From Candidatus Kaiserbacteria bacterium (GTDB lineage: Bacteria > Patescibacteriota > Minisyncoccia > Phycocordibacterales > UBA918): a stretch of 45,022 nt of DNA. This document shows positions 2,083 to 33,252 of this stretch, in pieces. Made by a program: the position numbers and the translations under genes. The stretch lies in the NCBI GenBank assembly GCA_043719825.1, contig JAYSTK010000019.1, positions 1 through 45,022 on the forward strand, in the 5' to 3' direction. Every line of letters starts with the position of its first letter. Within the stretch, counting starts at the first letter, position 1. Under the pieces are notes generated by a model, which searched no databases, had not been told where the DNA came from, and worked only from the letters and a program-made list of their open reading frames with translations.

Positions 2083-2136
2083 TGTATACAAATTTTGCGT
2101 ATACACCCACGCTATGAGCGGGTGTATACTTTTCGT

Positions 2137-3381
2137 ATGAAATGCATCGGACTCATGGATTGTAATAATTTTTTCGTATCCTGTGAGCGACTTTTTCGTC
2201 CTGACCTTATTAAAAAGCCAGTTTTTGTATTATCTGCCAACGATGGCTGTGTAGTTGCACGAAGTCAGGAAGTAAAAGACCTAGGTATTCCTATGGGAGT
2301 GCCGTTTTTTGAGGTCAAAGATATGTGTAAAAAGCATCACATAACAGTTTTTTCCTCTAATTTCACTTTGTATCGTGACATTTCATCTCGGGTAATGAGT
2401 GCACTTAAAGATGAATTTGACCGCATAGAAGTCTACTCAATAGACGAGGCATTTTTTGAAATCGAAAATCTGAATGAGGAGGATATTATGGCTATGCGTG
2501 AGCGTATTATTCTAAAAACCGGCATTCCTATTTCTTTTGGGATTGCAGCAACCAAAACGCTCGCAAAAATTGCAAATGCAGAGGCGAAACGTGCAAATGG
2601 GGTGAATATTCTTTCAAAAGAACAGGCGTTAGAAATAGGAGGTGAAATCTCGTGTGGAAGTGTATGGGGAATCGGACGACAAACGAGTGCAAAGCTTTCA
2701 AGATTTAAAATTCATACCATACATGATCTTTTGAATGTTGGGCTTACTTTTATGCGTCAGCATTTTGGAGTGCAGGGAGAACGGCTATACTTCGAGCTCT
2801 CTGGAACACCCGCCACACTTGCGGATTCTGTCGAACTTCCTCCAGGAAGCATAGCGAGCACAAGATCGTTTGGAAAAAAGGTAAACGATAAAGAAACGCT
2901 GAAGCAAGCACTTGCACATCATGTAACAAATATTGGGGAAAAATTACGTAAGGAAGAAGTTGCCGCATCTACTCTCACCATACTTTGTGCTCCTAGTCGG
3001 TATGGAACCTTTGCTTTACGCAAAGGAAGTGTACATCAGCCACTTTTGATTCCCACGAATGATACAAAGACTCTTCTCAAAGCAGCATTTGAGATGCTTG
3101 ACATGCTCTATGATAAAGAAGTGCCCTACAATAAAGCGGGCGTGATTGTGAGTGGCCTTATTCCTGTACCTTTCGTTTCCGAAAATTTATTTACGCTGTC
3201 ACCTAAAGAAGATTCCCGTGAACTTAATGCAGTCATCGACGGACTAAATAGTAAATATGGAAGACAAACAGTCACATTAGCAGCGTCATGCGGAGGGAAT
3301 AGTTGGAAAGAACGTACAGAGAGTCGATCGCCCGAATACACTACTTCATGGACGCAAATACCTAATGTTAAAGCCATATAA
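2137..3381 (+). CDS. umuC: Y-family DNA polymerase, UmuC-like
   Basis: The ATG at 2137 is preferred over the TTG at 2095. MDCNNFFVSCERLFRPDLIKKPVFVLSANDGCVVARSQEVKDLGIPMG parallels the UmuC N-terminus (CDVNAFYASCE..FRPDL..KPVVVLSNNDGCVIAR). A SIDEAF catalytic motif is present. TG-TATACT at 2123-2130 lies 6 nt before the ATG. Confidence 0.85.
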   Translation: MKCIGLMDCNNFFVSCERLFRPDLIKKPVFVLSANDGCVVARSQEVKDLGIPMGVPFFEVKDMCKKHHITVFSSNFTLYRDISSRVMSALKDEFDRIEVYSIDEAFFEIENLNEEDIMAMRERIILKTGIPISFGIAATKTLAKIANAEAKRANGVNILSKEQALEIGGEISCGSVWGIGRQTSAKLSRFKIHTIHDLLNVGLTFMRQHFGVQGERLYFELSGTPATLADSVELPPGSIASTRSFGKKVNDKETLKQALAHHVTNIGEKLRKEEVAASTLTILCAPSRYGTFALRKGSVHQPLLIPTNDTKTLLKAAFEMLDMLYDKEVPYNKAGVIVSGLIPVPFVSENLFTLSPKEDSRELNAVIDGLNSKYGRQTVTLAASCGGNSWKERTESRSPEYTTSWTQIPNVKAI

Positions 3382-3672
3382 GACGATGTCTTTAATATGT
3401 CGTATAAAAAGAAATATTCACACGCATAAACTACTAAAAGTAATTAAGGTTATCAACAATTCTTTAAGACAGTTTGTATAAGACTACGATATAATACATA
3501 AGGTCGATCGAGGAGTTAAAAGTCACCGGTAGTTGTCTAAACAAAACGGCTGTATCATTTTTTGGTACGTGTTTGGAATAATTGCCTCTCCACAGACTTT
3601 CTTCGATCGAGTGTTATACGGGGGTCTCCGTATGGCATCAAAGTTATTTACAACTTTATAATACTAAAGTAC

Positions 3673-4821
3673 ATGTACGTTTATAGACGGCAAGTTGCTG
3701 TCGAGAAAGGGATCGCGACCCTCCTCGCGCTAGCGCTTGTGCTCTGGGTAACGGGTACACACATGTTTATGAAGGCTGAGGCGGCAAACCTTACCTACAT
3801 AAAAGATACCCTATCAAACTCAGCACCAAGTGAGACATCGAATCATACGATTCAGTTTTTGTCACCAACAGGAGTCACAACTACGCAAAGTATTGTTATT
3901 ACATTTCCAAATGGATTCAATCTCAGTACGAGCACAGTAGCGTTTGACGACATCGATTTAGCTGAAGCAGGAGTTGACGAAACACTAGTAGCAGCAGGTG
4001 CAACAACTGCACAATGGAATGTATCCATTTCGGGACAGACGCTTACTTTCACGAGTGGAGGCGCATCAGCAGTTATTGCTGCTAATGCAACCGTTACTAT
4101 TGAAATTGGTACCAATGCAACATTTGGTACAGCTGGTGACGCACAAATTACTAATCCATCTGCAACTACCTCATACGAGTTTACTGCTGCCGCAGGTACA
4201 GCAGACTCAGGACAGTTCCGAGTAGCAATCGTTAATAAAGTACTCGTCACTGCAAACGTTGACACAACACTTACCTTTACAGTGGCAGGAGTGGCAGCAG
4301 GAGCAACCGTGAACACGAGTGCTACAACCACATCGACCACGACAACAAGTAGTGCGATTCCATTTGGAACGCTCGCAGCGAACGTCTCAAAAACTGCCGC
4401 ACAAGATCTTTCAGTTACTACTAATGCTAAAAACGGTTTTGTAGTCACCGTAGAGCAGAGTCAGCAACTTCAGTCATCAACTGGTGCTGACATTGACGGA
4501 TTCGTTAATGGTAGCTGGACAACGACACCAACTGCATGGACTGCCCCGACGAATAACATTGCAAACGAGAATACATGGGGCCATTGGGGTCTTACCTCGG
4601 AAGACTTTGTTACGGGCCGTACGAGTGAATTCTCTGCAAACACATGGGTTGCAGCAAGTACCACTCCGGTTATCATCATGGGCCACACAGGACCATCTGA
4701 TGGAACGACAGCAGGACAAGGTTTGTCTCGAATCGGTTATCAGGCACAAATCGCAACACTTCAAGAAGCAGGTGATGACTACAACACTTCGCTTACATAC
4801 ATTGCGACAGCAACCTTCTAA
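3673..4821 (+). CDS. secreted beta-rich surface protein, SAPS-box family (WxL/CscB-like by architecture)
   Basis: The ATG at 3673 is chosen because the N-terminus then aligns with the paralog at 39135-40286. It has a signal anchor ending AEAA, then the DTLSNSAPSETSNHT box and Thr/Ala-rich beta sequence. It ends in the conserved GYQAQIATLQEAGDDYNTSLTYIATATF. Confidence 0.75.
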   Translation: MYVYRRQVAVEKGIATLLALALVLWVTGTHMFMKAEAANLTYIKDTLSNSAPSETSNHTIQFLSPTGVTTTQSIVITFPNGFNLSTSTVAFDDIDLAEAGVDETLVAAGATTAQWNVSISGQTLTFTSGGASAVIAANATVTIEIGTNATFGTAGDAQITNPSATTSYEFTAAAGTADSGQFRVAIVNKVLVTANVDTTLTFTVAGVAAGATVNTSATTTSTTTTSSAIPFGTLAANVSKTAAQDLSVTTNAKNGFVVTVEQSQQLQSSTGADIDGFVNGSWTTTPTAWTAPTNNIANENTWGHWGLTSEDFVTGRTSEFSANTWVAASTTPVIIMGHTGPSDGTTAGQGLSRIGYQAQIATLQEAGDDYNTSLTYIATATF

Positions 4822-4838
4822 AGATATTCAATCAGAAT

Positions 4839-4870
4839 AAACAAAAACTCCCTTCGGGGAGTTTTTGTTT
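4839..4870 (+). terminator. rho-independent terminator
   Basis: AAACAAAAACTCCC-TTCG-GGGAGTTTTTGTTT is a perfect 14-bp stem with a tetraloop and a T-rich 3' arm. It lies 18 nt after the stop at 4821. Confidence 0.85.
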
Positions 4871-4923
4871 ATATACAGAAATTTCTATTCGAGTTTCTAG
4901 CAAAGTGGTAGGATAGATAAATC

Positions 4924-5994
4924 GTGCGAATCAAACCGCTCTCATTTCTGTTTGGAATTTTCTTAAGTACTTTTCTTGTAACAGTTCCTTTAACAAGTTC
5001 TGCTCAAAATGTTGCAGGCATTAAAGTGATTCCTGCATTCATAAATGGTCTCGCAGATCCGGGAGAGATACTGTATAAGGAAATAAAAATTTCAAATATA
5101 AGTGCAGAAGATAAAGAGTATTTTATATATAAGCGAGATATAAAAGGTGTAGAAGAAGGAGGGGTCCCCATTTTCGCTGATGAAAGTGCAGAAAAAACTG
5201 GATATGAGATATCAGAATGGATTTCACTACAAACAGAACCTGTGCGCGTTGGTGCTGGGGAAACGATCACTTTCCCTTTTAATATAAATGTTCCCGAAAA
5301 TGCATCACCGGGTAGCCACTTTGGCGGTATTTTTGTCTCTGTTGAAGCACCTAAATTACGGGAAATAGGAGCCGGAGTTGGATATGAAGTTGCTTCAATT
5401 GTCAGTATACGTATAAGCGGCGATGTTATTGATGACGCACGAGTTCGCTCATTTTCTACGGATAAACTTTTTTACAGTTCGAAGAATGTAAAATTTAATG
5501 CAAAGATTGAGAATCAAGGAAACATTCTTATCCAACCCCGGGGACCGCTTACGATTACCAGTATGCTTGGAGGTAAACCAGAAACAATAATGGTAAATGA
5601 GGATCTCGCGGGCGTTTTCCCAGGCACTATTCGTGAACTTTCTTTTGACTGGTCAAGTGAAGGAATTGGATTTGGTAAATATGAAGCAATACTTGCTCTG
5701 AGTTACGACGGTGAAGATGGACAAAAAACAATTGATGCTACTGCAGTGTTTTGGGTATTTCCTACAAAAGTAATTGTGCCAATTCTAATTGGCTTCGTAT
5801 CAATAATTGTTATTGGGTACCTTCTCACGCGATACTATATTAATCAGGCGGTGATGAGAGCTGCAGGAGGGCGTCGGATTTCGACATATCGGTATAGAAA
5901 GCAAGTTGGAGTTTCAAGATTTACGTTTGTATTTGTATCAATTTTAGGGGCAATGGTTATTTTCCTCATTGTGCTTCTCATATTGTTTGCGTAG
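4924..5994 (+). CDS. signal peptide + C-terminal TM anchored beta protein, DUF916/CscA-like (or COG1470-like)
   Basis: GTG start, 356 aa. It has a signal peptide ending SSAQN. The beta-sandwich-like blocks are IKVIPAFINGLADPGEILYKEIKISN and ISLQTEPVRVGAGETITFPFNINVPENASPGSHFGGIFV. Two hydrophobic helices lie in the last ~90 aa. The family name comes from remembered sequence pattern only. Confidence 0.65.
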   Translation: MRIKPLSFLFGIFLSTFLVTVPLTSSAQNVAGIKVIPAFINGLADPGEILYKEIKISNISAEDKEYFIYKRDIKGVEEGGVPIFADESAEKTGYEISEWISLQTEPVRVGAGETITFPFNINVPENASPGSHFGGIFVSVEAPKLREIGAGVGYEVASIVSIRISGDVIDDARVRSFSTDKLFYSSKNVKFNAKIENQGNILIQPRGPLTITSMLGGKPETIMVNEDLAGVFPGTIRELSFDWSSEGIGFGKYEAILALSYDGEDGQKTIDATAVFWVFPTKVIVPILIGFVSIIVIGYLLTRYYINQAVMRAAGGRRISTYRYRKQVGVSRFTFVFVSILGAMVIFLIVLLILFA

Positions 5995-6013: not shown

Positions 6014-6400
6014 ATGACTCATGGTCTATATCATAAAATTCTCAGGGTAAGTATTGTCGTTACTTCACTTGTACTATTATTTGATGGGGGATTTATAACT
6101 CCGATTACAAAATCGTTGTCGCAAAATACCTACGTGTATTTAGGGAATGCGGTAGGCATATTCGCCGGCGTTGAACCTAATGAACTCAATGTCATTACCG
6201 CAGAATTAACCGAACGCACTCGTAATCTTGATGTACGTGAGCAACAAATTAGGGAACGTGAGATTGCGACACGCGATTTCAATAGTTCGCGGAACGATTA
6301 TTCAATTTATATTCTCTCCGTTATACTTTTTGCACTCACGTGCCTCATTTTGGTTAATTATGCGCTTGATTGGCGACGGGCGCGTCGCGTTTTTGCATGA
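6014..6400 (+). CDS. small bitopic/two-TM membrane protein with charged coiled segment
   Basis: 128 aa, with an N-terminal hydrophobic segment (VSIVVTSLVLLF), a central ELTERTRNLDVREQQIREREIATRD segment and a C-terminal TM (IYILSVILFALTCLILV). Its stop overlaps the next start (ATGA at 6397-6400). Confidence 0.55.
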   Translation: MTHGLYHKILRVSIVVTSLVLLFDGGFITPITKSLSQNTYVYLGNAVGIFAGVEPNELNVITAELTERTRNLDVREQQIREREIATRDFNSSRNDYSIYILSVILFALTCLILVNYALDWRRARRVFA

Positions 6401-7206
6401 AAAGAACTCTCTTAAAAGGAACGCTCGTAGTACTCACTGCATCAATTGTTTCTACACTTGGTATTTTTGCGTCTGATACATTGCGCGGTATTGATGGTGG
6501 AGTGGCAAACATCGGTGGAAGTGGCGGTGGCACATGTCGGGCAGGAATGGTAGCTCAAAAAATAGATGATACTCTTATCTGTGTTGATATGTATGAGGCA
6601 AGTCCCTCTACACAGTGTCCTCATGGAGCGCCCCAAAATGCACTTGAGAGCGAGAAAAATGCATCTACGCCCGAATGCTATGCTGCATCAGTTGCGCGAC
6701 AAGTTCCTTGGGTATTTGTCACCCTTTCACAAGCGCAACGCATGTGTGCTGAAGCCGGGAAAAGACTTCCAACAAATGATGAGTGGTATAAAATTGCTCT
6801 TGGTACTGACCCCTCTCTATGTGTCATTAATGACAATAGCCCAAAAAAAACAGGCACACCATCATGTGTTGCATCCTCTGGAGCGTACGATACGGTAGGA
6901 AATGTATGGGAATGGGTTGATGAAACTGTTGAAGGTAATCAATTTAAAGAGCGACCAATTCCTCCCGAAGGCTATGTGACTTCAGCAGATGCTTCTGGCG
7001 TGGCTATTACAACTGATTTAAATACGGGAGATCTACTCTATGGAGAGGACTATTTTTGGTCTAAGAGTGAAGGTATATCCGGCATGATACGAGGAGGATT
7101 TTATGGTAGTGGGGATGATGCGGGGCTCTACACAGTGAACGCCACCGTTGCGACAAACTTTGCGGCGCAAGGAGTTGGATTCCGCTGTGTAGAAGACATC
7201 ATTTAA
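6397..7206 (+). CDS. membrane-anchored FGE/SUMF1-fold (formylglycine-generating enzyme family) domain protein, copy 1
   Basis: The ATG at 6397 is preferred over 6370. It has an N-terminal TM. The motifs CVDMYEA, RLPTNDEWYKIALG, GNVWEWVDE, RGGFYGS and GFRCV are the hallmark blocks of the FGE-sulfatase/SUMF1 fold. No Cys lies between RGG and GFRC. Confidence 0.8.
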   Translation: MKRTLLKGTLVVLTASIVSTLGIFASDTLRGIDGGVANIGGSGGGTCRAGMVAQKIDDTLICVDMYEASPSTQCPHGAPQNALESEKNASTPECYAASVARQVPWVFVTLSQAQRMCAEAGKRLPTNDEWYKIALGTDPSLCVINDNSPKKTGTPSCVASSGAYDTVGNVWEWVDETVEGNQFKERPIPPEGYVTSADASGVAITTDLNTGDLLYGEDYFWSKSEGISGMIRGGFYGSGDDAGLYTVNATVATNFAAQGVGFRCVEDII

Positions 7207-7233: not shown

Positions 7234-8040
7234 ATGAAATGGGTAAAGACCTGTATTGTTATTATATGTGCTGTAGTGGTAACTGCGCTTGGTATTGATG
7301 CGGCTGATACCATTAAAGGCTCAGAAGGAACACTCTTCTCACAAGTAATACATTCAACGGGAGAAGGCAGCTGTCCTTCCGGTATGCTTGAAATTCAAAA
7401 TGTTCTTACAATTAAATGTGTTGATCAATTTGAAGCATCGCCGAGCGAAAAGTGTCCTATCCCCGAGCCACAAAGTTCAATTGAGTCTCATAAAAATGCG
7501 GAATCTTCAATATGCACTGCAGAATCAAAAAAGGGGGTAAATCCATGGCGCTTTGTAAACCGAGATCAAGCAATGCAATTGTGTGCGCGAGAGGGGAAAC
7601 GTCTCCCTACAAGTGCGGAATGGTTCAACTTGAGTCTTGGGATGATTGAGGTTGAAGCATCCTGCAACATCAGCTCAAAAAAAATTTCACAGACAGGAAG
7701 CTTGTCAGAGTGCAAATCGCCTGCAGAAGTTTTTGATCTTGTGGGTAATGTGTGGGAATGGGTGCATGACGATGTCGTGGACGGAAAATATAATGAAAGA
7801 CAGCTTCCGAAAAATGGTTTTGTTATGCAAGCCGATAATGCGGGCATGGCTGTCAAAACAAGCGAACAAGAGGATCCCCTGTTCGGTAATGATTACTTCT
7901 GGTCGCCTGAGTCTGGTGTATACGGGATTGTTCGCGGCGGATATTACGACAGTGGGAGTGATGGCGGTATGTATTCCGTTCATGCAGACACACCTCCAAA
8001 CGCTGCAAGCATTGGAATTGGGTTTCGCTGTGTGATGTAA
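7234..8040 (+). CDS. membrane-anchored FGE/SUMF1-fold domain protein, copy 2 (tandem paralog)
   Basis: 268 aa with the same block order as copy 1: CVDQFEA, RLPTSAEWFNLSLG, GNVWEWVHD, RGGYYDS, GFRCV. TATACT at 7222-7227 lies 6 nt before the ATG. Confidence 0.8.
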   Translation: MKWVKTCIVIICAVVVTALGIDAADTIKGSEGTLFSQVIHSTGEGSCPSGMLEIQNVLTIKCVDQFEASPSEKCPIPEPQSSIESHKNAESSICTAESKKGVNPWRFVNRDQAMQLCAREGKRLPTSAEWFNLSLGMIEVEASCNISSKKISQTGSLSECKSPAEVFDLVGNVWEWVHDDVVDGKYNERQLPKNGFVMQADNAGMAVKTSEQEDPLFGNDYFWSPESGVYGIVRGGYYDSGSDGGMYSVHADTPPNAASIGIGFRCVM

Positions 8041-8114: not shown

Positions 8115-9986
8115 ATGAATAAATGGGGGAATTTGATGCTCGACATCCTTAAACGAACTCTTATGAGTGGTGTTGCACTTGTGAGCGTATTTTTTGTATC
8201 AGAAAATGCGTTTGCTGCAACAATTCATCAATACAAAGATACCCTATCTGATTCAGCACCAAGCGAGTATTCTAATCATACCGTTGAGTTTAAGACGACA
8301 GTTCCAATTCCATCCGGAGGGTACATACGTTTTATTCCTGACAGCGGAGATTTCACTGTTCCTACCCTAAATTTTGACTATGAAAACGTTGAGTTAGCGG
8401 TTTCTACCTCTTCAGGATATGTCATTCGCTCATCCACATCATCTGTCAGTGCAACTGAGGATGGTGTGACAATTACTCCTGGTTCATCAGGCAAAATTGA
8501 AATATCGCTTAATAGTACCGTTCCGATACCTGCGAATGCATTCCTTAGAATACGAATGGGGAACAATACTCAAAATGCGACAAATACTGATTTGGGGTTT
8601 CAAAATCCGCCAACAACGGGAACATTTGAATATCATATTGAAACAGGCGGAGGAGGAAGCGACTCACGAGTGAGAGGTTTGGTTGCAATCATAGATACTG
8701 TTGGAATTGGTCCGATTGACACTCGAGAAATCGAACCACCTTTTCGATTTAATGGTGCTCCAACAGGAACACTCTCAGGGACAACACAAGTAGTACAGAT
8801 GTCACTTGAGACTAACGAGTTTGCTCAGTGTCGGTATAGTAACGCAGTAGGAACACCCTATTTTTCGATAGGGAATCAGTTCAGCAGTACATTTGTAACT
8901 GTCCACTCAAAAAATCTCACGGTAGCGACAAGTACTACGTATACATTCTACATACGATGTATAGATGATGAAGGAAATGAAAACCTAGATGATTATATTA
9001 TTTCATTTTCTATTCCCGCGTTTCCAGAAGGGTCACCAGGAAATGATGGAGATAATGAAGGACAAGGTTCTGGAACAGGCTCAGGATCAGGAGACTCGGA
9101 CCCCGGCGATGGATCACCTAATGGAGGCGATGATACTAGTGGAGGAACTTCAGGTGGTGGAGGAGGTGGCGGTGGGGGGGGAGGTTCAGGATCGAGTAGT
9201 GGAGGAGATGATGGAGGGGGTGGATTTGAAGGTGTTGGAAAGGCATACCAGAGTGGTGATGGACGAGTCATAATTAACGGATATGCGTTTCCGCGGAGTC
9301 TAGTCTATGTTCTTGTCGACGGTACTATCGCTGATAGTGTTACCGCAAGTGGACTTGGTGAATTCTCCGTTACTCTCGATGCCATAGCACGAGGTGTATA
9401 CAATTTTGGAATCTATGCGATTGACAAAAACAAAGTAAAATCGAGCACGTTTACGACAACATTTACGGTGACTGGGGCGCGCGGCTCAACACTTTCAAAT
9501 ATAAACGTAATGCCTTCAATTAAGGTTACACCGGATCCTGTAGAACCTGGTCAAACCCTACTCGTGTCAGGATTCGCTATCCCCAATGCAGTTATTACCC
9601 TTGAAAATCAGCAAGACAAATCAAGTGTGAGCTTAAAATCTTACACAACCAATTCTGACGCAAATGGAGCATGGAGTGTCTCAATTGAAACAACAGGATT
9701 TAAAAAGGGAACATATAAAGTACGTGCCAAAGCAAAACAAGAAACAGGAGATTTGGCACAAACGAACTACTCAAACTATACATTTTATGGAGTTGGTGAA
9801 TCAGCGGCTACACCGCGTTCTTCTGATCTTAACCGTGACGGCAAAGTAAACCTTATCGATTTTTCGATATTATTATTTTGGTGGAATAGCGATGGAGGAA
9901 ATTCAAATCCTCCGGCTGACATAAATGGCGATGGGCGAGTAAGTTTGACAGACTTCTCTATTTTGATCTTTAATTGGACTGGATAA
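8115..9986 (+). CDS. secreted surface protein: SAPS-box N-module, Gly/Ser linker, Ig-like repeats, C-terminal dockerin
   Basis: 623 aa. The signal peptide ends AFA, followed by DTLSDSAPSEYSNHT. A G/S/D-rich linker runs through about 9040-9230. The C-terminus carries two EF-hand-like dockerin segments, DLNRDGKVNLIDFSILLFWW and DINGDGRVSLTDFSILIFNW. Confidence 0.8.
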   Translation: MNKWGNLMLDILKRTLMSGVALVSVFFVSENAFAATIHQYKDTLSDSAPSEYSNHTVEFKTTVPIPSGGYIRFIPDSGDFTVPTLNFDYENVELAVSTSSGYVIRSSTSSVSATEDGVTITPGSSGKIEISLNSTVPIPANAFLRIRMGNNTQNATNTDLGFQNPPTTGTFEYHIETGGGGSDSRVRGLVAIIDTVGIGPIDTREIEPPFRFNGAPTGTLSGTTQVVQMSLETNEFAQCRYSNAVGTPYFSIGNQFSSTFVTVHSKNLTVATSTTYTFYIRCIDDEGNENLDDYIISFSIPAFPEGSPGNDGDNEGQGSGTGSGSGDSDPGDGSPNGGDDTSGGTSGGGGGGGGGGGSGSSSGGDDGGGGFEGVGKAYQSGDGRVIINGYAFPRSLVYVLVDGTIADSVTASGLGEFSVTLDAIARGVYNFGIYAIDKNKVKSSTFTTTFTVTGARGSTLSNINVMPSIKVTPDPVEPGQTLLVSGFAIPNAVITLENQQDKSSVSLKSYTTNSDANGAWSVSIETTGFKKGTYKVRAKAKQETGDLAQTNYSNYTFYGVGESAATPRSSDLNRDGKVNLIDFSILLFWWNSDGGNSNPPADINGDGRVSLTDFSILIFNWTG

Positions 9987-10226: not shown

Positions 10227-10691
10227 ATGTCCTTTTTGCAACGACTCAAAGGGAGGGGTATTCGTACCGAGCAGCGACTCCAATCAAGTGAAGAAGAGAC
10301 GGCGCTTGATAAAATCGTGCAGCTTGATGTGGATGTGTATCAAACCACCGATCTCATCGTTGTGTATGCGCAATCTGCAGGTGCAGAACTCTCGGAGATT
10401 CATGTGTCAATTGAGGGAGATGCCGATGTTGTACTCATAGAGGGAAAGCGCCTTAGACCTGAGCATATTGCTTTTCCAAAGAAAAAGCCTGATGGAGTTT
10501 TTTTTACAGAAGAATGCGTGTGGGGAGATTTCTATAGAAGAATTATACTTCCAGAGAGTATTGATATTACGAAGGCAGAAGCGAAAGTAAAAAATGGTGT
10601 TCTTGTGTTGGTGCTACCACTATTGCGTCCTGAAGAAAAAGAAAAAGTAAGACTTAAGATTCAGCGTGCAAAAGCACCGAGAGGTGGCTGA
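10227..10691 (+). CDS. hsp20: small heat-shock protein, Hsp20/alpha-crystallin family
   Basis: 154 aa. VDVYQTTDLIVVYAQSAG...HVSIEGDADVVLIEGKR...FYRRIILPESIDITKAEAKVKNGVLVLVLP follows the alpha-crystallin domain pattern. TAGAAT at 10213-10218 lies 8 nt before the ATG. Confidence 0.85.
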   Translation: MSFLQRLKGRGIRTEQRLQSSEEETALDKIVQLDVDVYQTTDLIVVYAQSAGAELSEIHVSIEGDADVVLIEGKRLRPEHIAFPKKKPDGVFFTEECVWGDFYRRIILPESIDITKAEAKVKNGVLVLVLPLLRPEEKEKVRLKIQRAKAPRGG

Positions 10692-10710
10692 TAAAATTTC
10701 AAGATATTCT

Positions 10711-12243
10711 ATGCCTGTTCTTTTAGTTCAAAATTCTCAAATCATCCGCACACTTATAATCAGTATATTTTTTTACTGTATTTTCGGCGTTGCATACCAT
10801 GCGACCGCAGCCGAAGTGGTTGTTACCCCTACCACTGCTACGTATTCGAAAGGTCAGACATTTACAACTACGATTCAAGTAAATCCTCAAGGTAAAAGTG
10901 TGAATGCGGTAGAGGCGAAACTTTCATTTGACTCTACAAAATTTGCCGTTGTAAGTATTTCTAAAACTGGTTCAGTTTTTTCACTTTGGACTACTGAACC
11001 CACATTTTCAAATTCAGCGGGCACAATTGAGTTTGGAGGTGGAAGTCCCACACCATTTACTGCAAAATCAAATCTTGTTTCTATAACGTTACGAACATTA
11101 GGAGAGGGAAGTGGAACACTGAGCGTGTCGACAGCTTCCGTGCTTGCGGCAGATGGTCTCGGTACAAATGTTTACACAGGTGCGAGTAATGGTACGTACT
11201 CAATAAGTGCGGCAGCTGTTACACCTCCGCCAGTCGAGCCAGAAGAGGAAGAAGAAGTTGTTTCCCCAGAAAAGCCAAAAGAAGAGAGTGAAGCAGCAAT
11301 TACCTTTGGAGACCCTCCACGAGCCCCAGAAGCTGGGTCTTCAGTATTTCTCGAGCCTGACAAGTGGTATGCAACGAAAGCTGGTCTTTTTACATGGGAG
11401 ATACCATTTGATGTAGATGAACTTGCACTTGATATTGCTACGTCTGTTGATGCAACTCCAACAACTAAGTACGACCCACCAATTGAAGAAATTGCACTTA
11501 ATGCAACCATGCTCATTGATGGAGTTCAATATCTCACCATGCAGTATAAAAATCAGGTTGGTTGGGGGGCAATACTCCACCGAAAGATCATGATTGACAC
11601 TGTCCCACCTGAGAAATTCGTGATAAATGTACGTGCAGGAAACACACCTTCAGCGTTTCCACTTCTAAACTTTGAGGCAATCGATTCTATATCTGGTATA
11701 GAGCGCTACGAAATGACTATTGCAGATGGGGAACCCATTCCTGTAACTCCAGATGAAGCAAAACTTGGCTATCTTATTAAAAACCTTGAAGATGGAACAT
11801 ACACCGTTCGAGTTACTGCGTTTGACTATGCAGGGAATGAGACCTTAGCGTCAGTACCTCTCCTCATTACTGCGGGATGGCTGCCACCACAAGAAATTGT
11901 AGTAACGAGCTCTTTCTGGGACCTGTTTAAAGGGAAAAATCTCGTTATCATATTGCTTCTTATTTCTCTCATTGCTCTCATCTCATATATTGTTTCACTT
12001 AAAAAAACAGCTGAGCATAAGGAACAAAAACTTAGAAAAGAAACAAAAGAAATCCAGGATCAGATGGAAAAAATATTCTCTGCTCTTCGTGACGAAATCT
12101 ATGATCAAATCAATATGATTACAAAACGCGAGCGACTTTCAAAGAAGGAGAAGGAAGCTGTTGAAGGCTTGAACCAAGCACTTGAAGTTTCAGAAACCTT
12201 GATTGAAAAAGAGATCACTGATGTGAGCAAAATACTCAAATAA
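10711..12243 (+). CDS. cohesin-like domain protein with Ig-like domain, TM anchor and ~80-aa cytoplasmic coiled-coil tail
   Basis: The ATG at 10711 is preferred over 10666, which overlaps hsp20. A signal segment is followed by VVVTPTTATYSKGQTFTTTIQVNPQGKSVNAVEAKLSFDSTKFAVVSISK...FGGGSP...LAADGLGTNV, a cohesin-like beta sandwich. The TM is at about 11941-12000, followed by a charged helical tail. It is a paralog of 41576-43321. Confidence 0.75.
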   Translation: MPVLLVQNSQIIRTLIISIFFYCIFGVAYHATAAEVVVTPTTATYSKGQTFTTTIQVNPQGKSVNAVEAKLSFDSTKFAVVSISKTGSVFSLWTTEPTFSNSAGTIEFGGGSPTPFTAKSNLVSITLRTLGEGSGTLSVSTASVLAADGLGTNVYTGASNGTYSISAAAVTPPPVEPEEEEEVVSPEKPKEESEAAITFGDPPRAPEAGSSVFLEPDKWYATKAGLFTWEIPFDVDELALDIATSVDATPTTKYDPPIEEIALNATMLIDGVQYLTMQYKNQVGWGAILHRKIMIDTVPPEKFVINVRAGNTPSAFPLLNFEAIDSISGIERYEMTIADGEPIPVTPDEAKLGYLIKNLEDGTYTVRVTAFDYAGNETLASVPLLITAGWLPPQEIVVTSSFWDLFKGKNLVIILLLISLIALISYIVSLKKTAEHKEQKLRKETKEIQDQMEKIFSALRDEIYDQINMITKRERLSKKEKEAVEGLNQALEVSETLIEKEITDVSKILK

Positions 12244-12324: not shown

Positions 12325-15300
12325 ATGTTGGGGCTGCTTGTTCAATTGAAGAATTTTTACTTTAAAAAAACAAGTAAAGAATTTAAAAAACACATATTTA
12401 GAGCGCTACAATTACCATTAGCGTTTATTCGACGTGTTGAAGCGATTGATTATGAAAACTCATTGTTCGTGAGCTCTGCTTCACACACTAAGTCGTATAT
12501 AACGAAGTTCGTTTTAATATCGATATTTACTGTTGTGCTTTTGAGTACAAGCACCGTTGAGTCACAGTTTTCTTTAACACGCAAGTTAGATACGATTAAT
12601 GTTTTTTCTGAACGAGTAGAGAGTACAACTTGGAAAAATATCGAAGCTTTGTCTGAGCAAAATGTATCTAAAGATGGTTTGTATCAAGAATTTTCAAAAA
12701 ATAATTCTGCATATCGTGACGTTGAAAAAATAATTGATAATTCTTCAAGTACGCAAGAACCGCAACCGAATGAACAAATTATTGACAGTGAAATTGAACA
12801 GCAGCCTATTGATATTCAAGGAGAAGGCACAACTGAAACTTCTTCTCCAGAAATAAATCAAGAAATTAATACTGACACAGAAGCCTCATCTGATATTGAA
12901 AGCGAGTCGTCCACAGACTCAACTAATGAAGCAACGGAATTGCCAACTAATGCAATCGATGAACCGGTTTCACAGAACGAATATACTCCCGCAGAATTTG
13001 GTCTCTTTAAAAAAGTAACTGGTGTTTTTACTTTTGCGCAAGAATCTGTAACAAGCAGTTTAAGTGACAGTGTAAGTGATCAAATTGAAATAGATACTGA
13101 ATCTGAAGAAATCATTACGCCTACTGGAGAATCAATTACAGAAGATATAGACCTCATTGAATCAGCAAGTACAACTGAAGCAGATACCATAAGCATTAAT
13201 GAGAATAGTGATGTGAATGAAACTACGAATGTAGAAGAAAACACAAATACTCTAAACACTGCACACATTACCTTTAGTGATTTTGCACTTCCTAATCTTG
13301 AATCAGGTCAATTTATCACTAATGTGCAATTGCGCATGTCGCTTGCAGCACTTATCACAAGCAATCGCGAAGACTACCCTGTTCTTGATGTTGAATATTT
13401 ACTCAATGAAAAGTGGGAGAATGCAGGTTCCGTTATTCTTGACGGTGAGGTCTCAAATGCTTTAAATGGTGGCTATTATCTTTTTGCATTACCAACATTC
13501 ACTACCGTTGATGAATTAGATTCCTTGAGTGTAAGAATTACAGAGCGTGGGGAACTTTTAGAGGAAGACACTGTATTCATTGATGCGGTGTGGCTCGAAG
13601 TAGATACAGAAACATTTGATCGTGATCTATTGCGAGAACGGTTACTTCCAGAGGTCTTTAAAAAACTTTCTCTTCCAAGGATGCACACGCTCCTCAGTGA
13701 TACGCTCGACTTCTCTCGCGATGATGATCCTGTGTTTGTGCTCCGCTATGAGTCACAGCGAAATGCAGGAGTACGATTCTTAAGAAATATTTTTGGAAGA
13801 AATCTTGCAGAAGTTAAAACGGTTACGTTTGTTCGCAAGGGAGTTGGAATTGTAGATATTGAGCCTCTCGTAGACATGACAAATGAAGGCCTTTGGACTA
13901 TTCAGTTGCCACAAAATGCACAAGATGATTTAGAGCCGGGAACCTACACAATTGAAATTGTTATTGATGAGGGAGGTAAAGTTTTCACTGACTCTCTTGA
14001 TTTTCAATGGGGACTTCTTGCTGTTAATCCACATAAAACTGAATATGAAATTGGTGAAGTAGCGACTATTGCGCTTGCTGCGCTATCACCAAGCGGTAAT
14101 ACACTCTGCGATGCCGAGCTCGCACTGTACATTATCGATCCGCTTGAATATATTCATCGGTCAACAATACAAAAGTCCGGACTTTGTAATGGTAATAATG
14201 TTATTGATGTTCCCGATTATAGTGCGGAATTCACTCCGACTGTGAGTGGGGAATATGAAATGTATGTTGAAAATATTGGTACAAATGGAGAGGTGTTGGC
14301 CCACACCGTAGATACGTTTATGGTGGTAGAGCAACAATCATTTTCTATCACCCGTCAGAGTCAAACAAGAATTTATCCACGGGCAGAATATAGTATGGCG
14401 CTTAGAGTGGAAGCAGAGGATGCGTATGTGGGTGAACTTATGGAACGTGTACCTCGTGATTTCGTAATTGGTGAGACTGATGCGTCTATTACTATGAATG
14501 GTGATATTCAAGAATTGCGTTGGGGTATTTCTCTCAAAGGTGGAATCCCACAGACATTTACCTACTCATATGATGCGCCAGATATTTCGCCCTTCCTCTA
14601 CACACTTGGTCCTGCAGAAATAGGAAATAACACTCAATCTGACGTTGTACCCCAACTCGAAAATACTGCGACCCAGACCCCGTCTTCTGCATTTGAATCA
14701 CCCGTTATAGAAAATGTAATTGATGAAGCTACAGAAATTAATCAACCGCTTCAATTGGAAGATACAGAACCCACTTCTGTACCAGTCCTTAATGAAACCA
14801 CAACGCAACAAGAACCTGAAGAAATAATCGCTCCCGAAACTCCCGAAAGTACTATTCTTCAAAACGAAGATACTTTTGAAACAGTTGCGCCAGAGGAAAA
14901 TGCTTTTGAAATTGTTCCGACACTCGAACAACCTCTCATTGGCGAAGTAACACAGTTGACGCTTACTCCTCTGCCGCAAGCGAATGGATTTATTGAACAT
15001 CGCCGGTGGCAGATTGCGTCAGACGCAACGGGAAGTATGATCGTATTTTGGACTGATGGAGCGAGTATTCCTTCTGGATGGACGTGTATCTCATGTACAT
15101 CAACCAGTACATTTTATCAACGTTTTCCTCTTGGAGGTGCTACCTATGGAACACAAGCTGGTGTTGCTACAACTACACACACTGCAGATGGAGCAGTAAA
15201 TGCGTCGGGACTTTCAAATGCAGAAAGTTTTGGAACTTCGTTTGTAAGCATTAACTCTCACTCCCATACGATTACACCAATAATTGGAAGTACGACAACA

Positions 15301-18300
15301 CTACCCGCATATCGACAACTGCGTGTCATCCAAAATAATAGTGCCGGAAGTCCAGCGACAGTTCCGGCGGGAGCAATTCTTATTTTTGATGGATCACTAC
15401 CTTCTGGCTGGGTCCAGTATACGGACCTCGATAGTCGCTATCCACGCGGTGAAAACGCTATTACGAGTGCGGGTTCAAACACTCATATTCACACTGCTAC
15501 AGCTACCCTAAGCGCAGCTTCGGGTTCCACATATGATTCCCGAACTGGAGGTACTCAGGTCACTGCTGCTGGTATTAATCATACCCATACATTGAGTACA
15601 TCTACCCCTCCGGTCAATCATGAACCTGCATATATGCAAGTAATCTTTGCTACATCGTCAATCGCTACGGCAACACCACTCACAGCAATCGCTCTTTGGA
15701 GCGACACACCTCCCGCTGGATGGCTCAATCGATCTGCACAGCCGACAGACCCATTCTATAATCGCTATATAAAGGGAGGGTCTACATATGGCACTACAGG
15801 TGGAGGAGACTCTCATACACAAGGGAACTTCACTGCATCTTCGAGTGCAGCAGTCGGAACAGACAACGCGAGAACTGGTACAGCAGGTTCTTCAAATACT
15901 CATACGCATGCTATCGATCTTTCCAATTTTTCAACTGCTTCAAATACACCACCTTCCGTAACTGTAATTTATGCAAAATACTATGGACTCGTACCAATTT
16001 ATACTCAATCGGCATTTAGATGGTATGTAAACGCAAATTCCGTATCACCAACTGATGCGTGGCCGACGAGTACGGTAGACGTTCTTGAAAACGAAGCAAT
16101 CGATACATCGTTCACTCCTCTTAAAAATGGTGATGTTCTCCGTCTTCGCCTTCAACTAAATGTTTCAAACTCAACGACAACTGGAGAAGATTTCAAATTG
16201 CAATTTGGCACAACGACTGCACTCTGTACCGCAGTGAGCGCATGGACGGATGTAGGTTCAGCAACGTCTTCAGCAGCATGGATAGGGCACAACAATAGTA
16301 GCCCGAGTGATGGTGCAACGCTTTCAACATCGACTCTTACGGGGACTGATGTTCTCGAAACGTACGAAGAACAAAATCCAACAATAGTTCTTCCCAACGC
16401 AATAGGAATAGGACAAGAGGGGGAATGGGACTTTGTTTTGAAACAAAATGCTGCAAGTCCAAACACAAATTATTGTTTTAGAATGGTAGAAGCTGATGGC
16501 ACTGAATTATTCGCGTATACTCAGTACCCGTTACTTATTACGAATGCACAGCCAAATGCCCCATCGCTCCACGTACTTTTTGATAACGAAAAAGTGAGTA
16601 CGACGACACCTCAATTTGAATTCGCAGGAACTGATGCTGAAGCTGATGATCTTACCTATCAAATTCAAATTGATAGTGATTACACCTTTGGGTCAGTAGA
16701 TGTAGATCGAAATAGTGCATCAAATCCAACACAATTCGCTAATATAATTTCACCAGCTGATAAAAATCCATATACTAACGGAGAAACGATACGGTTCTCA
16801 CTCACTTCAGCTCTTACAAATAACACCACGTACTATTGGCGTGTAAGAACGCAAGACCCAACTGGTTCAAATAATTGGGGATCATGGTCAACGATTTTTA
16901 GTTTTACAATTGATTCATCACTTACGAATAGTGCGTGGTTCCAAACGACAGAGGAACAGTTTGATACGGACACACTTGTTGGAACAGATGCACTCGCAAC
17001 TGATTTGGTACAACTGAGCGTAGGATCAACGACAGGAACGACCACTTCTTCACAAATTGATTTTTTAGACGGCACTGTCGGAAATGCATGGGGGTCACTT
17101 TCTTTTAATGATGATGAGACTGTCGGTGACATCAAGTATCGAATTCAATACTATAGCGATGCCACTGCGAGCTGGGCAAACATTCCTGACATTGATCTTT
17201 CAGGTAATAGTGCGGGATTTGATACTTCTCCAGTTAGTTTGCTCTCTTTAAATACAGATATATATCGACTGATTCGAATTGTTGCCGTCTTTACAAATAG
17301 TGGAGGGAGCCCTCTCTTGTATGATTGGACAATTACGTGGGGGTACCGTATCGAGACACCAACATTAAATTCACCCTTCCCGAATGAAAAAGTAAGTACC
17401 ACAACACCGACATTTGAGTTTGAGACAACTGATCCACAAAGTGATGATCTTGAATATGAAATCCAATGGTCGACCACGTATGCATTTACTGCATCAACAA
17501 CACGGAACTCATCAACAAGTCTTGGCTTTATAAATAGCGAGAATGGTGGAGATACATCACCGTTCACTTCTGGTCAAACGATTCAGTTCACCGTGCAGCC
17601 AGCCGATATACTTACCAATGGCACCACATACTGGTGGCGGGTACGCGCTCGAGATCCCTTAGGTAGTAATCAGTTTTCTCTCTATACAGATCCTCTAAGT
17701 TTTACTGTAGATACTTCAACTTCAGTTTCAACATGGTTCCAAACTACACAATCCCAATTTGAAACAGATGTGCTATCAGGAACAATAGCGCTTGTAACAG
17801 GCTCCGTTACCGTTGCAACGACATCAGACGAAAGTCTTATGGTGTATGCAGAAGGAATTGTTACAACTCCTCGTTACCGTGAATGGGATGGCACTACATG
17901 GAGTAGTGAAGCAAGTGCACTCGGTGTAGGTGCACCCATCAATTGGATAGTCACGAAGGCTTCCCCAATAAAAAATGAATTCATAACAGGAACACTTGGG
18001 ACAGATGCTGATGTTAATATTCAAGTATTTAAAAATGGGTCTTGGGGAAATATTCAAGAAATTACCACCTCAATCCCAAATACCAATATGCGAGGATTTG
18101 ACATTGCATATGAGCAAACTTCAGGTGATGCGCTCGTTGTTGCGTGCGATGGCGACGCTGACCCTTCTTACTATGTGTGGAACGGAAGTGCGTGGGTAAG
18201 TGGTGGCACCATCGATCTAACAGCCGGGAATAGTTGTGGTTGGATAAAGCTTGTGTCGAATCCTACGTCTGATGAAATCATAGTAATCACCCGAGATACT

Positions 18301-21300
18301 TCTGGTACCGCCTATGAAACTCTTGTATGGAGTGGCTCTGCATGGGGAACAAATCGAAAAATATTTGGTTCTATGCAATCTACTCAAGCAAATCATGAAG
18401 GAATTGCAGCAGAATATGAAGAGAGTGGTAATCAGGCAGTTATAGGGGTATCAAACGGTACTGCGTCGAGTTTTATCTGGACCGCATGGGCAAGTGCGAC
18501 GTGGACAGTCCCCGCAGCAGTAGCGCTCGGTGACGATTTTGAATCGGGAACAATTGTAGCTGATGACGGTAGTGATAATTTGGCTCTTTGTTACATTGAT
18601 CACGACAATGATATTGGTGCGGTGCGCTGGACCGGTGCCGCATGGGCGGGTCAAACCGAACTCGAAATCGCATGGGCGGGTACAGACACCGTTTTCAACG
18701 ATCGTCCCGTTGATTGTTCTTTTGAGGTAGGGGGAGCACGTGATGGGTACATTATGGTTGCGTACAGCGACACCACCAATGTTCGACATCGTGCTTGGAA
18801 TGGAACAGCATGGGATGTTGGAGAAACAAACGTTTCAACAATACAAGACGCTCCGCGTGTTCAACTTCGTCGAACGGGAGCAAATCTTATACAGCTTGTT
18901 GCATTCGATGATACAAATGATCGATATGATTATTCGTATTGGAATGGAACGATATGGAATGCATTCCAAACTCTTGAAACAGATGCTTCAGTAGGTGCAA
19001 CTCCTTTTAAGGAGCCGTTCATGAATGCGGTACGAAATCCTGGAATTATAGGTTCTGCAGTTGTTTCTCCCGGAATTGATTTTTATGATGGAAGCGGACC
19101 GTACTGGGCACAGCTTTCGTGGACTGACTCAGAAGCAGGGGGATCAACTGTTTTATACCAAGTTGAATATTACGATGGTGACTCATGGGAGCTTGTTCCA
19201 AATGGTCTCATCCCTGGAAATTCAACAGGAACAACAACAAGTCCCATCAATCTTTCAAATGTTCTTCCTGTTTCAACGTACAACGAGATTCGCCCCGTAG
19301 CTAATCTCACCTGTAATCTCGGTACGTGCCCGTCACTTTCTGATTGGACAGTTACGTGGGCTGCAGGTATATCAATAAGTGGAACAGCACAGGCATATGA
19401 TCAATCGACGAATGTCATCTCGGGTACTGTTGGTGTCTCTCTGAACGGCGTCCTTCAAGTAGGGAAAACAGGCACAATTTCAGGCGGTGTCTGGTCAATT
19501 GCAAATGTAAACGCAGCGCCAGGTGATATTGTTTCAGTCTTTGTAAATGGGGCAAATGATATTAATGAAGCAGTCTCTGTGACACGTTACGATGGTATTG
19601 GTGACATTACCGGAATGCGACTCTACGAACGCCATCTTGCACTCGGATCCAATGATGCAACTTCTACCCCATTTACGAATGCAGAGATTGGACTATATGA
19701 TTTTACAAATGATGAGGACATTTTCTTTGATCTTTCAGGTACTGTACTCACCCTCTGTGCCGACGTTGGATGTGGAGATGTTGAGTTGTATACGGCGAGC
19801 ACTACTATCTACCGTCCTCAAGGTACTGTCGTAACTCATGACATTGAAATCAATGGAACCTTTAGACCTGAAGGAAATACGATCTACTTGAGTGGCTCGT
19901 GGGACAATAATGGCACCACAACATCAGCGACATCGACCGTTGTATTTACTGCTACATCCACAAATGAAACTATTGATGAAACGTCAGCTATTTCTCCATC
20001 ATTTTACAATCTTACGTTCGGTACGACGACCGGTAATGCTACGTGGACACCGATAACAGCGCTTGATGTTAATGGAGCATTGAGTATTACAAGAGGGACA
20101 TTCTCGCGTGCGAGCGTGAATCTCAATATAGCGGGCAATACATTTGTGGGTGTAAATGGATTTATAACGGGTGTTGGTACGACTACGTTTGATGGAACAG
20201 GCACTGCAATATATACGGACAGCAATGCAGTCACTCAAAATATTGGGCGCATAGTCGTCGATGGAACATCAAAAACACTTCAACTCGGTAGCGCCGCTCT
20301 CATGCAGTCAATCAACATTGGAAGCGATGATATTTTAGATGTATCAACATCAAATTATAGCCTTACCGTTCTGACCAATTTTATAAATAGCAACACGTAT
20401 GTCGCTCGAAGTGGTACGACAACGTTTGCGGGTACGACAACTAATCTCACTATAACTGCAGGGGGAGATGCATTCTACAACCTCGCATTCACGGGTGCGG
20501 GTGGCTCGTGGTCTTTCACTGAGGGAGATTTAAGTATCGGAAATGACTTTGTCATGAGTACCGGTACTATCACTATGCCCACAGGGACAACGACTGTCAC
20601 GGGAACCTTTGCAAACAACGGTGGAACATTTGCGCACAATAACGCTACTGTTGTTTTCGATTCTGCATTGTCTGAGACGGTGACACTTCTTGGTACTGCT
20701 TTTACGAACGCTTTCTATAATGTGCGGTTTTCGGGAAGTGGGAGTTGGGTATTTACTGAAAGTAACGCAACAACATCAAATGATTTCCGTATTACGCAAG
20801 GTACCGTTGTACTTCCTTCGAGTACACTCGCGATTGGAGGTCACTTTGCGAATAGTGCAGGTACATTTGCCCACAATAATGCCACTGTTCGATTTACGAG
20901 CAGTAGTGCAAAAACTATCGACACCAATTCATCGTTCAACCACCTTACCTTTGTCGGAAGTGGAAGTTGGTCATTTATTGATACAAACGTTACTGCACTC
21001 GAGGATGTTTCAATTAGTAACGGTACAGTCACGTTCCCCTCAAATACGTTTACAATAGGTGGCTCGCTCATAAATAGCTCCACGCTTACTCACAATAGTG
21101 GCACGGTACTATTCAATTCAATTGATAGTGGTGAAACGATTGCACTGGGCAATTCTCCATTACACAATCTCTTAATTAATAGTGGGACAGGTGGGTGGAC
21201 AGTGAGCACTCATGCAACAACAACGGGAAGTACAACACTCACGTCTGTAGGTTCATTCACCGTTACTTCTGGTCAAACACTTTCCGTGGGTGGCGTCTTT

Positions 21301-32523: not shown

Positions 32524-32644
32524 AGCATAGAAATTTGGAACATTTCTTTGTTGGAACTACAGTTTTCTCCTTCACCGTACGTTGAGTACGTTTCATTCGT
32601 AAACTTTGTTCCGCCTCGAACTGTTCTCAAATTTCTATGCTCTA
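32521..32644 (+). ncRNA. candidate structured element, copy C
   Basis: A perfect 17-bp closing helix pairs TAGAGCATAGAAATTTG (32521-32537, including the TAG stop of the ATPase gene) with CAAATTTCTATGCTCTA (32628-32644). ACATTTCTTTGTT is at 32540-32552. The hairpin is CGTAC-GTTGA-GTACG. TCGTAAAC and GAACTG (32619-32624) are also present. Confidence 0.45.
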
Positions 32645-32740
32645 GATTTCTGACTTCAGTCCGTATCAGAAGGATTTTGAAGATGCGCTTTGAATCTGTG
32701 CGCAGCAATGTACGAAATCCCAACGATTTTGATAAAAGTA

Positions 32741-32798
32741 TAAAAAAGAAAACAGCTCCAGCAGGGAAGACGGAGATGTCTTCGCTCAGCGGGAGCTG
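32741..32798 (-). terminator. rho-independent terminator of the minus-strand gene
   Basis: On the minus strand, CAGCTCC...GGAGCTG (32753-32759 with 32792-32798), with an inner GAAGAC/GTCTTC helix, is followed by TTTTCTTTTTTA (complement of 32741-32752). It lies 20 nt after the stop of 32818-33252. Confidence 0.65.
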
Positions 32799-32817
32799 CC
32801 TATAGTGATGCTGGACT

Positions 32818-33252
32818 CTATGCAACTTCTAAGCGATGTGCGTCGATAAATTCCCGTTTGATTTCATTCGACAGTTTTTCTACGTCGTCATTATCCACTC
32901 GCCTGCCAAACAGTGCAACGGCAACAACGGCGAATGCCTGAAGACGCGATGAAGCGCTGTCGCGGTCTTCAGAACGCTGTTGGATCTTTGTACTTTTAAA
33001 GCCACTACGCGCAAAGGCCTCAAATGCAATGATGAACGCAGAAGCAGAAAGATCCTTTAGACCGGCAACCAAGCGAACGAAGTTGGTCGCGGCCTCTTGG
33101 CTGAAGTCATTTTTGATACCAACGTAAAACTTTTCGAGTATTCTGGAATTGAGATCGCTTTGTGTTGGCCCACGTCCAGCGTAGTAGCCAGCTTCAAATA
33201 CGAAACACTCTTCTCCACGCATCCAATTCTCAACAGTTCTAATTAAGTTCAT
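32818..33252 (-). CDS. hypothetical alpha-helical protein, the only minus-strand gene
   Basis: 144-aa ORF with an ATG start, its own terminator and no hydrophobic segment typical of secretion. I recognise no family motif (the sequence begins MNLIRTVENWMRGEECFVFEAGYYAGRGP). Confidence 0.55.
   Translation of the reverse strand: MNLIRTVENWMRGEECFVFEAGYYAGRGPTQSDLNSRILEKFYVGIKNDFSQEAATNFVRLVAGLKDLSASAFIIAFEAFARSGFKSTKIQQRSEDRDSASSRLQAFAVVAVALFGRRVDNDDVEKLSNEIKREFIDAHRLEVA

Follow-up and report, generated by a model that had tools for sequence, protein, structure and literature searches.

Two surface-assembly systems described in other bacteria provide the closest comparisons for the DNA analysed here, a stretch of 45,022 nucleotides from a Candidatus Kaiserbacteria bacterium (contig JAYSTK010000019.1; hereafter the window) in which secreted beta proteins are encoded next to membrane-anchored partners. 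The first comprises the Pam pili, thin pili of Ca. Mycosynbacter amalyticus that are built from PamA (55 kDa) and PamB (38.7 kDa), and in which the C-terminal domain of one pilin takes up the linker of its neighbour by donor-strand exchange (Troman et al., bioRxiv 10.64898/2026.03.03.709456). The accessory proteins of this system include PamC and PamD, PapD/FimC-like two-domain chaperones from the same operon, with a C-terminal transmembrane (TM) helix; PamR, an RbmA-like, TM-anchored terminator with two FnIII-like domains, a TM helix and an extra N-terminal strand; and PamT, a tip subunit that consists of the C-domain only (Troman et al.). Conservation among Pam pilins is highest in the linker and the C-domain, and the system has been reported mainly in Saccharimonadia and Microgenomatia; the same paper makes no mention of DUF916 or WxL proteins, or of Parcubacteria/Paceibacteria (Troman et al.), and a literature search found no paper that joins DUF916 with names from the Candidate Phyla Radiation (CPR).

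The second system is the Csc/WxL cluster, in which WxLIP, a protein composed of DUF916 (PGBD), then DUF3324 (HBD) and a C-terminal TM helix, is encoded with at least two C-terminal WxL-domain proteins (160–190 aa) and, frequently though not obligatorily, with an LPXTG protein (Siezen 2006; Hassan & Williamson 2023). A WxL domain carries two conserved W-x-L motifs with a spacing of ~68 or ~106 residues (Siezen 2006; Hassan & Williamson 2023). The prediction for WxLIP is that one of its strands completes the sandwich of the WxL domain.

The window is a plus-strand run of surface-protein genes of ~42% GC, and the named homologs of its proteins are from Candidatus Kaiserbacteria, Paceibacterota and Minisyncoccia (CPR/Patescibacteria). 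It contains two gene pairs, each with a secreted protein followed by an anchored one, A1 (3673–4821, +; 382 aa) with B1 (4924–5994, +; 356 aa) and A3 (34748–36580, +; 610 aa) with B2 (36692–37630, +; 312 aa), as well as A2 (39135–40286, +; 383 aa) and a giant surface protein (12325–29097, +; 5590 aa). An initial annotation had proposed that this locus may be a distant analog of a csc cluster; the five open reading frames it named (A1, A2, A3, B1 and B2) are all present on the plus strand, and so are the motifs it listed (VPENASPGSHFGGIFV, VSVPDKADFKQYKGNIRIKT, WGHWGLTS, YWGIRVP and FWGIEIP). Our analysis upholds the part of that proposal that concerns the anchored proteins and the gene logic, but not the part that treats the secreted proteins as one WxL-like family. 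The locus is best read as an island from Paceibacteria for the assembly of a Pam-like pilus or adhesin, with an anchored partner that is homologous to the WxLIP of Firmicutes.

The membrane-anchored proteins and their conserved gene order

B1 and B2 are homologs of each other and distant homologs of WxLIP/CscA (DUF916+DUF3324+TM), because Pfam, PDB-profile, hhalign and fold matches agree, as the initial annotation had suspected. B1 matches Pfam PF06030 (WxLIP_PGBD, DUF916) at E 2e-4, which is below the gathering score, and the same family is matched by 24 of 26 B1 homologs (best E 6.6e-7), one of which is named a ‘DUF916 domain-containing protein’ in its NCBI record. A B1 profile searched against the PDB found the Enterococcus faecium WxLIP (EfmWxLIP1) at E 2.3e-4. 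When five real WxLIPs, taken from WxL clusters in Enterococcus, Listeria and Bacillus plasmid records, were compared with the two window proteins by hhalign, the alignments spanned both domains for B1 (probability 86.9%, E 4e-6, 202 columns) as well as for B2 (93.3%, E 2.7e-7, 243 columns); the hhalign percentages given here and below are probabilities. The relationship between B1 and B2 themselves is weak by BLAST (E 0.002) and clear by hhalign (97.9%, E 3.8e-13, 216 columns, again over both domains).

Predicted structures, which cover A1 and B1, were obtained with AlphaFold2 (AF2). The B1 model (predicted local distance difference test score, or pLDDT, 76.6) has two Ig-like beta-sandwich domains (residues 38–164 and 172–278) followed by two TM helices that form a hairpin (281–315 and 322–355). 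In a Foldseek search of 350,542 PDB chains the top three matches to this model were WxLIP (9i25_C, 9i1y; E 2.7e-11, 244 columns, 17% identity), the next were the fimbrial chaperones CfaA and CupB2 (TM score 0.46–0.54, E 4e-9 to 7e-7), and these were followed by RbmA and by transglutaminase Ig domains. Both anchored proteins start with a signal peptide; B1 ends in the two TM helices just described, and B2, also with two Ig-like domains, has only one TM helix at its C-terminus. The B2 family, for which 753 representative homologs were found, has a conserved N-terminal strand, AGFGI(T/S)PPY, with the counterpart AGIKxIPA in B1. The TM hairpin of B1 (residues 281–355) also has a conserved basic cytoplasmic loop, YYINQA..AGGRR..RYRKQVG.SR.

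The order of secreted then anchored gene, which is the same as in real WxL clusters (Enterococcus, Listeria, Bacillus), is maintained far beyond chance. B1 homologs of as little as ~40% identity are present in 51 metagenome loci with sufficient sequence upstream, and in 46 of these an A1-family gene is on the same strand and no more than 400 bp upstream. For B2 homologs, the GTDB species loci that extend far enough upstream number 73, and in every one of them an A3-family gene immediately precedes the B2 homolog. The arrangement of A2 in the window, downstream of B2, also has parallels, with an A1-family gene that follows the B2 homolog at 1.3–2.3 kb in 33 of 55 GTDB loci. In addition, in related loci a large gene lies ~6 kb upstream of the A3–B2 pair, and in 41 of these loci that gene ends in an A3-type C-terminal module.

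The secreted proteins A1, A2, A3 and the giant protein

A single hydrophobic signal segment is present at the N-terminus of each of the secreted proteins A1, A2 and A3, in line with the initial annotation. Contrary to its proposal, however, they are not WxL proteins. Pfam WxL was matched at E<=1 by none of 91 family members (0/55 in the A1 family and 0/36 in the A3 family), and hhalign against real small and large WxL domains gave at most 1.2%, compared to 99.5% for a control that aligned small with large WxL domains; the result in global mode was negative too. WxL chains were also absent from the top 50 PDB fold matches of A1, and profiles of the A1 and A3 families found nothing relevant among PDB sequences. 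A WxL identity was thus rejected by Pfam, by PDB profiles, by local and global hhalign and by the 50 best fold matches. A1 and A2 have one W-x-L motif each and lack the Asp/Arg signature upstream of it (W-8/W-6), and A3 has a single such motif that lies outside its C-terminal domain. No TasA/camelysin or SCPU match turned up in the Pfam, NCBIfam or PDB searches, in which such a relationship was not pursued specifically. An LPxT[GAS] motif is found in no protein of the window.

Judged from their sequences, the secreted proteins fall into two unrelated families, one with A1 and A2 and the other with A3 and the giant protein. A1 and A2 are full-length paralogs that are 55% identical (BLASTP). The C-terminal ~330 aa of A3 is homologous to the C-terminus of the giant protein (BLASTP E 1e-19), and a hidden Markov model (HMM) of the A3-family C-terminal domain (A3fam_C) matches residues 5456–5588 of the giant at E 8e-17; the module of the giant takes up residues ~5301–5588 (nt ~28225–29088). 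Between the two families hhalign gave 0.3% over the full length and 1.5% for the C-domains, and the sole aligned piece covers 16 columns, ‘iPFGtL / IpYGsL’. Therefore, the pattern that the initial annotation saw in all the secreted proteins is real as a motif but is no evidence of one module. The existence of one module common to A1/A2 and A3/giant was accordingly rejected, given these hhalign values and the lack of cross-matches between the domain HMMs in the window and in 160 loci.

A1 consists of a signal segment (1–37), an N-domain (~41–185), a conserved linker (~181–205) and a C-domain (~225–382) that ends in an invariant Phe. Its AF2 model (pLDDT 87.4) shows two beta domains, at 41–185 and 200–382, and the fold matches are tandem Ig-like adhesins, plus BslA for one domain. 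Within the A1 family, conservation is highest in the C-terminal strand (355–382), followed by the rest of the C-domain and the linker (181–205), and lowest in the N-domain. A profile for Pam pilins, NCBIfam NF058581 (CPR_Pam_pilin_C, ‘Pam pilus system pilin subunit’), matches residues 225–382 of A1 and 224–383 of A2 over profile positions 2–148 of 148, up to the exact C-terminus. The match to A1 has E 1.7e-4, and A1 and A2 both lie at ~1e-4 and ~22 bits, relative to a cut-off of 55. This profile is also matched, below the cut-off, by 50 of 55 A1-family members (best E 2.7e-6) and by 8 of 10 divergent family members that adjoin B1 homologs (up to 29 bits), and by none of the 36 members of the A3 family. 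A1 and A2 thus appear weakly but family-wide Pam-pilin-like in the C-domain, which suggests a pilus of the donor-strand type, served by a chaperone in the membrane, more than a static Csc complex.

A3 is a Cys-rich beta protein, secreted or signal-anchored, from a CPR-only family that contains no named domain. The family has 14 invariant cysteines and an invariant C-terminal Trp, and residues 1–35, which comprise an N-terminal tail and the hydrophobic segment, are unusually conserved; this end of the protein seems to be more than a signal peptide to be discarded. Outside its A3-type module the giant protein is nearly domainless, with matches to Ig_Rha78A_N and DUF2341 only, and its N-terminus is acidic and rich in Ser, Thr and Glu.

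A proposed assembly mechanism and its alternatives

The results suggest a model in which the locus would be a conserved surface-assembly island with two gene pairs, each encoding a client and then its anchored partner. After Sec-dependent export, B1 and B2 would each bind the C-terminal domain of the client encoded upstream by inserting a beta-strand into its incomplete beta-sandwich, an interaction that would keep the client stable and in place on the surface of the membrane. Strand complementation of this kind is predicted both for WxLIP with WxL proteins and for PamC/PamD with the Pam pilins. In the first pair, B1 would act like the PamC/PamD chaperones, and A1 and A2 would assemble into a thin pilus through donor-strand exchange, a process with which the conserved linker and C-terminal strand agree, if indirectly. 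In the second pair, B2 would serve the unrelated C-terminal module of A3 and the giant protein, and the latter would be displayed or incorporated through this module. As with the polymerisation and the part given to the giant protein, the A–B binding and strand complementation in this model are inferred by analogy with the systems introduced above. Whether Paceibacteria/Kaiserbacteria have a pilus of the Pam-like type, made of a pilin with a chaperone or anchor in the membrane, and a second, analogous pair for the A3/giant module is, in our estimate, an even call.

A further component may be the secreted protein encoded at 8115–9986 (+), which contains Ig-like domains. The N-terminal part of this protein matches the N-terminal ~190 aa of A1 and A2 (E 1e-10; BLASTP and HMM). 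It retains the N-domain of the A1 type and half of the linker, the first, but lacks an A1-type C-domain, and it ends in a dockerin (Dockerin_1, E 4e-9). These features make it a candidate terminator or anchor subunit. One could speculate from gene content that it caps the proximal end of the fibre and docks onto the TM-anchored cohesins encoded at 10666–12243 and 41564–43321.

Several observations weigh against this model. The Pam-pilin scores are 17–29 bits, far under the NCBIfam cut-off of 55, and the likeness to PamA–PamD was judged by that NCBIfam profile and the published description only. The window proteins are likewise below the Pfam gathering score for DUF916, and Pfam DUF3324 was matched by no member by sequence alone. 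The module shared by A3 and the giant protein has no detectable similarity to Pam pilins, A1 or WxL domains, and the predicted A–B binding is drawn from gene order and analogy. Neither a PamT-like tip (in the window, the HMM of the A1-type C-domain matches only A1 and A2) nor a clear PamR-like terminator was found, with no separate RbmA-like protein recognised in the window, and the ATP synthase, CorB and MFS genes that neighbour the pam operon are not among the annotated open reading frames of the window. Finally, B1 has a two-helix TM hairpin, whereas WxLIP, PamC/PamD and B2 have a single helix.

Some of the same data could be accommodated by a static, Csc/WxL-like complex, essentially as the initial annotation had envisaged. 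Here A1, A3 and the giant protein would be bound non-covalently at the cell surface by B1 and B2 as stable anchors, in the way that WxLIP retains WxL proteins, and no filament would be made. B1 and B2 are homologs of WxLIP in sequence and fold, WxLIP precedes the chaperones as the top PDB match of B1, the gene order is that of real WxL clusters, permanent membrane anchoring fits a tether, and a short and a giant protein with one C-terminal module resemble small and large WxL proteins. This alternative is nevertheless unlikely, although it is the most serious of those considered, since every test spoke against WxL domains in the clients, the domain matched by A1 and A2 comes from pilins with established polymerisation, and the A1/A2 linker strand is conserved. 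The two proposals are not fully exclusive, as the second pair could be static and the first polymerising.

It is also conceivable that B1 and B2 are PamR-like terminators or anchors, with an N-terminal strand that inserts into the C-domain of the last subunit and so tethers a finished fibre. The fold reported for PamR, that of RbmA, is among the best matches of B1; PamR has been described with the two FnIII-like domains, TM helix and extra N-terminal strand noted above; and the top conserved motif of the B2 family follows directly after the signal peptide. We consider such a role quite improbable, as the TM scores to RbmA (0.32–0.35) are below those to chaperones (0.46–0.54) and WxLIP, hhalign places the N-terminal motif within the alignment to the first WxLIP domain, and this assignment would leave the window without a separate chaperone candidate. 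Equally doubtful is the idea that there is no direct A–B partnership and that these are generic Ig-like (CARDB/NPCBM-type) envelope or S-layer-associated proteins that are merely co-transcribed, to which the weak matches of the B2 family to the GH123 N-domain, CARDB, choice-of-anchor T and PACE-CTERM S-layer proteins, and of tandem Ig folds to many unrelated PDB entries, could be attributed, since strict, immediate adjacency kept down to 40–45% identity (46/51 and 73/73 loci) is hard to account for unless the genes are functionally coupled, and three independent methods agree on the specific WxLIP match.

Beyond the locus itself, the Pam-like model raises the tentative idea, which we think possible but would not favour, that WxLIP and Pam-type chaperones form one homologous family. 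In this scenario, Csc/WxL complexes and Pam pili would both descend from a single monoderm system in which an anchored protein of two Ig domains completes a strand-deficient client. Paceibacteria would have diversified it to serve two client families, with the client module placed on a 5590-aa adhesin and the fibre base attached, through the pilin-like, dockerin-bearing subunit 8115–9986, to TM-anchored cohesins.

The CPR/Patescibacteria, ultra-small and host-attached, account for a large part of the diversity of bacteria, and their surface machinery is almost unannotated; public records list every one of the A and B families as ‘hypothetical’. If the Pam-like model is true, Pam-type pili reach Paceibacteria/Kaiserbacteria, beyond the classes in which they have been reported, and there is a testable function for thousands of hypothetical proteins (>1895 A1-type, 799 A3-type and 416 + 753 B-type matches). 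It would also make pilus chaperones homologous relatives of the WxLIP proteins found in Gram-positive commensals and pathogens, and give hints as to how a giant adhesin and a cohesin–dockerin network plug into the same assembly logic.

Neighbouring genes and comparison with known systems

The order of genes around A1 and B1 can be compared with that in L001, a complete Kaiserbacteria genome, in which CAP, an S24 peptidase, a Y-family polymerase, an A1-like gene, a B1-like gene and a gene for a small TM protein are followed by FGE-like genes, a dockerin protein, HSP20, a cohesin protein and the giant; the order in the window is identical. In the window, the genes directly upstream of A1 encode an S24 (LexA/UmuD-like) peptidase (1191–1640) and a Y-family (IMS/DinB-like) polymerase (2095–3381). 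This peptidase and polymerase adjoin the A1-like gene in L001 too, and a Y1 transposase is inserted between them. Directly 3' of B1, in a position that is conserved, is a gene for a 128-aa protein with two hydrophobic segments (6014–6400, +; 133 aa in L001). A promoter-like site at 3466–3495, upstream of A1, has 10 of 12 consensus positions, and a terminator-like hairpin at 6360–6388 follows the gene at 6014–6400, the scan counts for both being no better than in shuffled sequence; together they give a weak hint that A1, B1 and the 6014–6400 gene are bracketed as one transcription unit. The sequence was matched in DNA sediment metagenomes only, and no RNA runs with it were found.

Further along, two tandem genes (6370–7206 and 7234–8040) encode secreted FGE-sulfatase-like paralogs that are 42% identical and present in three copies in L001; for proteins of this kind next to surface-protein genes, a protein-modifying activity is one possibility. 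A gene for a small heat-shock protein of cytoplasmic type, HSP20 (10227–10691), lies amid the surface-protein genes, and its position is kept in L001. A MacB-type ABC transporter pair (31201–34679, +; Pfam ABC_tran, MacB_PCD and FtsX) is directly upstream of A3–B2, with a spacing that is kept in related genomes. It comprises an ATPase (31201–32523) with ~200 extra C-terminal residues and a permease (33471–34679; MacB_PCD+FtsX), and it could have a role in export or assembly.

The window also encodes a cohesin–dockerin network, formed by 10666–12243, 40558–41586, 41564–43321 and 43987–44727 plus 8115–9986 and 37635–38759, which includes two or three C-terminally TM-anchored cohesin proteins, two dockerin proteins that are secreted, and a single small protein that combines cohesin-like and dockerin-like parts. 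The cohesin protein at 10666–12243 (+; Pfam Cohesin at 27.3 bits, above the cut-off) has a TM segment at residues 418–449 and is a possible membrane dock for dockerin proteins. The product of 37635–38759 (+) is secreted and Cys-rich and combines DUF4215, Ig-like and dockerin domains, and its C-terminal 250 aa is 40% identical to 8115–9986. No carbohydrate-active enzymes were seen near the cohesin and dockerin genes. The pairing of TM-anchored cohesins with secreted dockerins, including one dockerin protein with an A1-type N-domain, recalls the cellulosome, which differs in having such enzymes; the tie to pilin-like proteins suggested here is taken from gene content.

Chaperone–usher pili (Pap and Fim pilins; PapD/FimC, CfaA and CupB2 chaperones) provide another comparison, in the chaperone-like fold of the two-Ig-domain B1, with CfaA and CupB2 among its best matches, in a pilin-like A1 with a strictly conserved C-terminus, and in the donor-strand complementation and exchange that are presumed here. 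There is, however, no outer membrane in this case, the chaperone-like B1 is membrane-anchored, and no usher family was matched in Pfam scans of the large open reading frames of the window. A further N-terminal domain is present in A1, and its inter-domain linker, instead of an N-terminal extension, would supply the donor strand.

The likeness to Csc/WxL clusters is greatest for B1 and B2, which at the level of distant homology and architecture have the features of a WxLIP over both domains and in the C-terminal TM anchor, with two TM helices in B1. In addition, A3 and the giant protein form a short and a very large protein with a common C-terminal client module, a parallel to small and large WxL proteins. 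Unlike those clusters, the locus has clients without WxL domains and no LPXTG protein, belongs to a CPR and not a Firmicutes lineage, and uses two unrelated client families in its two pairs.

In comparison with the Pam system, the locus has different neighbours (a Y-family polymerase, FGE-like, cohesin and dockerin proteins, the giant protein and the MacB-type ABC transporter), is found in a different class (Paceibacteria/Kaiserbacteria), and encodes A1 and A2 proteins without cysteines, whereas Pam pilins have disulfide pairs. Both systems are found in CPR lineages and have a Sec-exported, two-domain pilin-like protein with an N-terminal beta-sandwich, a linker and a C-terminal domain, which is of comparable size (35.2 kDa for mature A1, against 38.7 kDa for PamB), is encoded as two paralogs (A1 and A2 here) and is most conserved in the linker and C-domain. 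Next to it is a partner with two beta domains, a C-terminal TM anchor and a fimbrial-chaperone-like fold, and B1, with its two beta-sandwich domains and TM segment, its fold matches to CfaA and CupB2 and its place beside an A1-family gene in 46 of 51 loci, has the properties of a Pam-type chaperone. In this way, the pattern in the window is real and is mostly a variant of surface-assembly systems that are already known.

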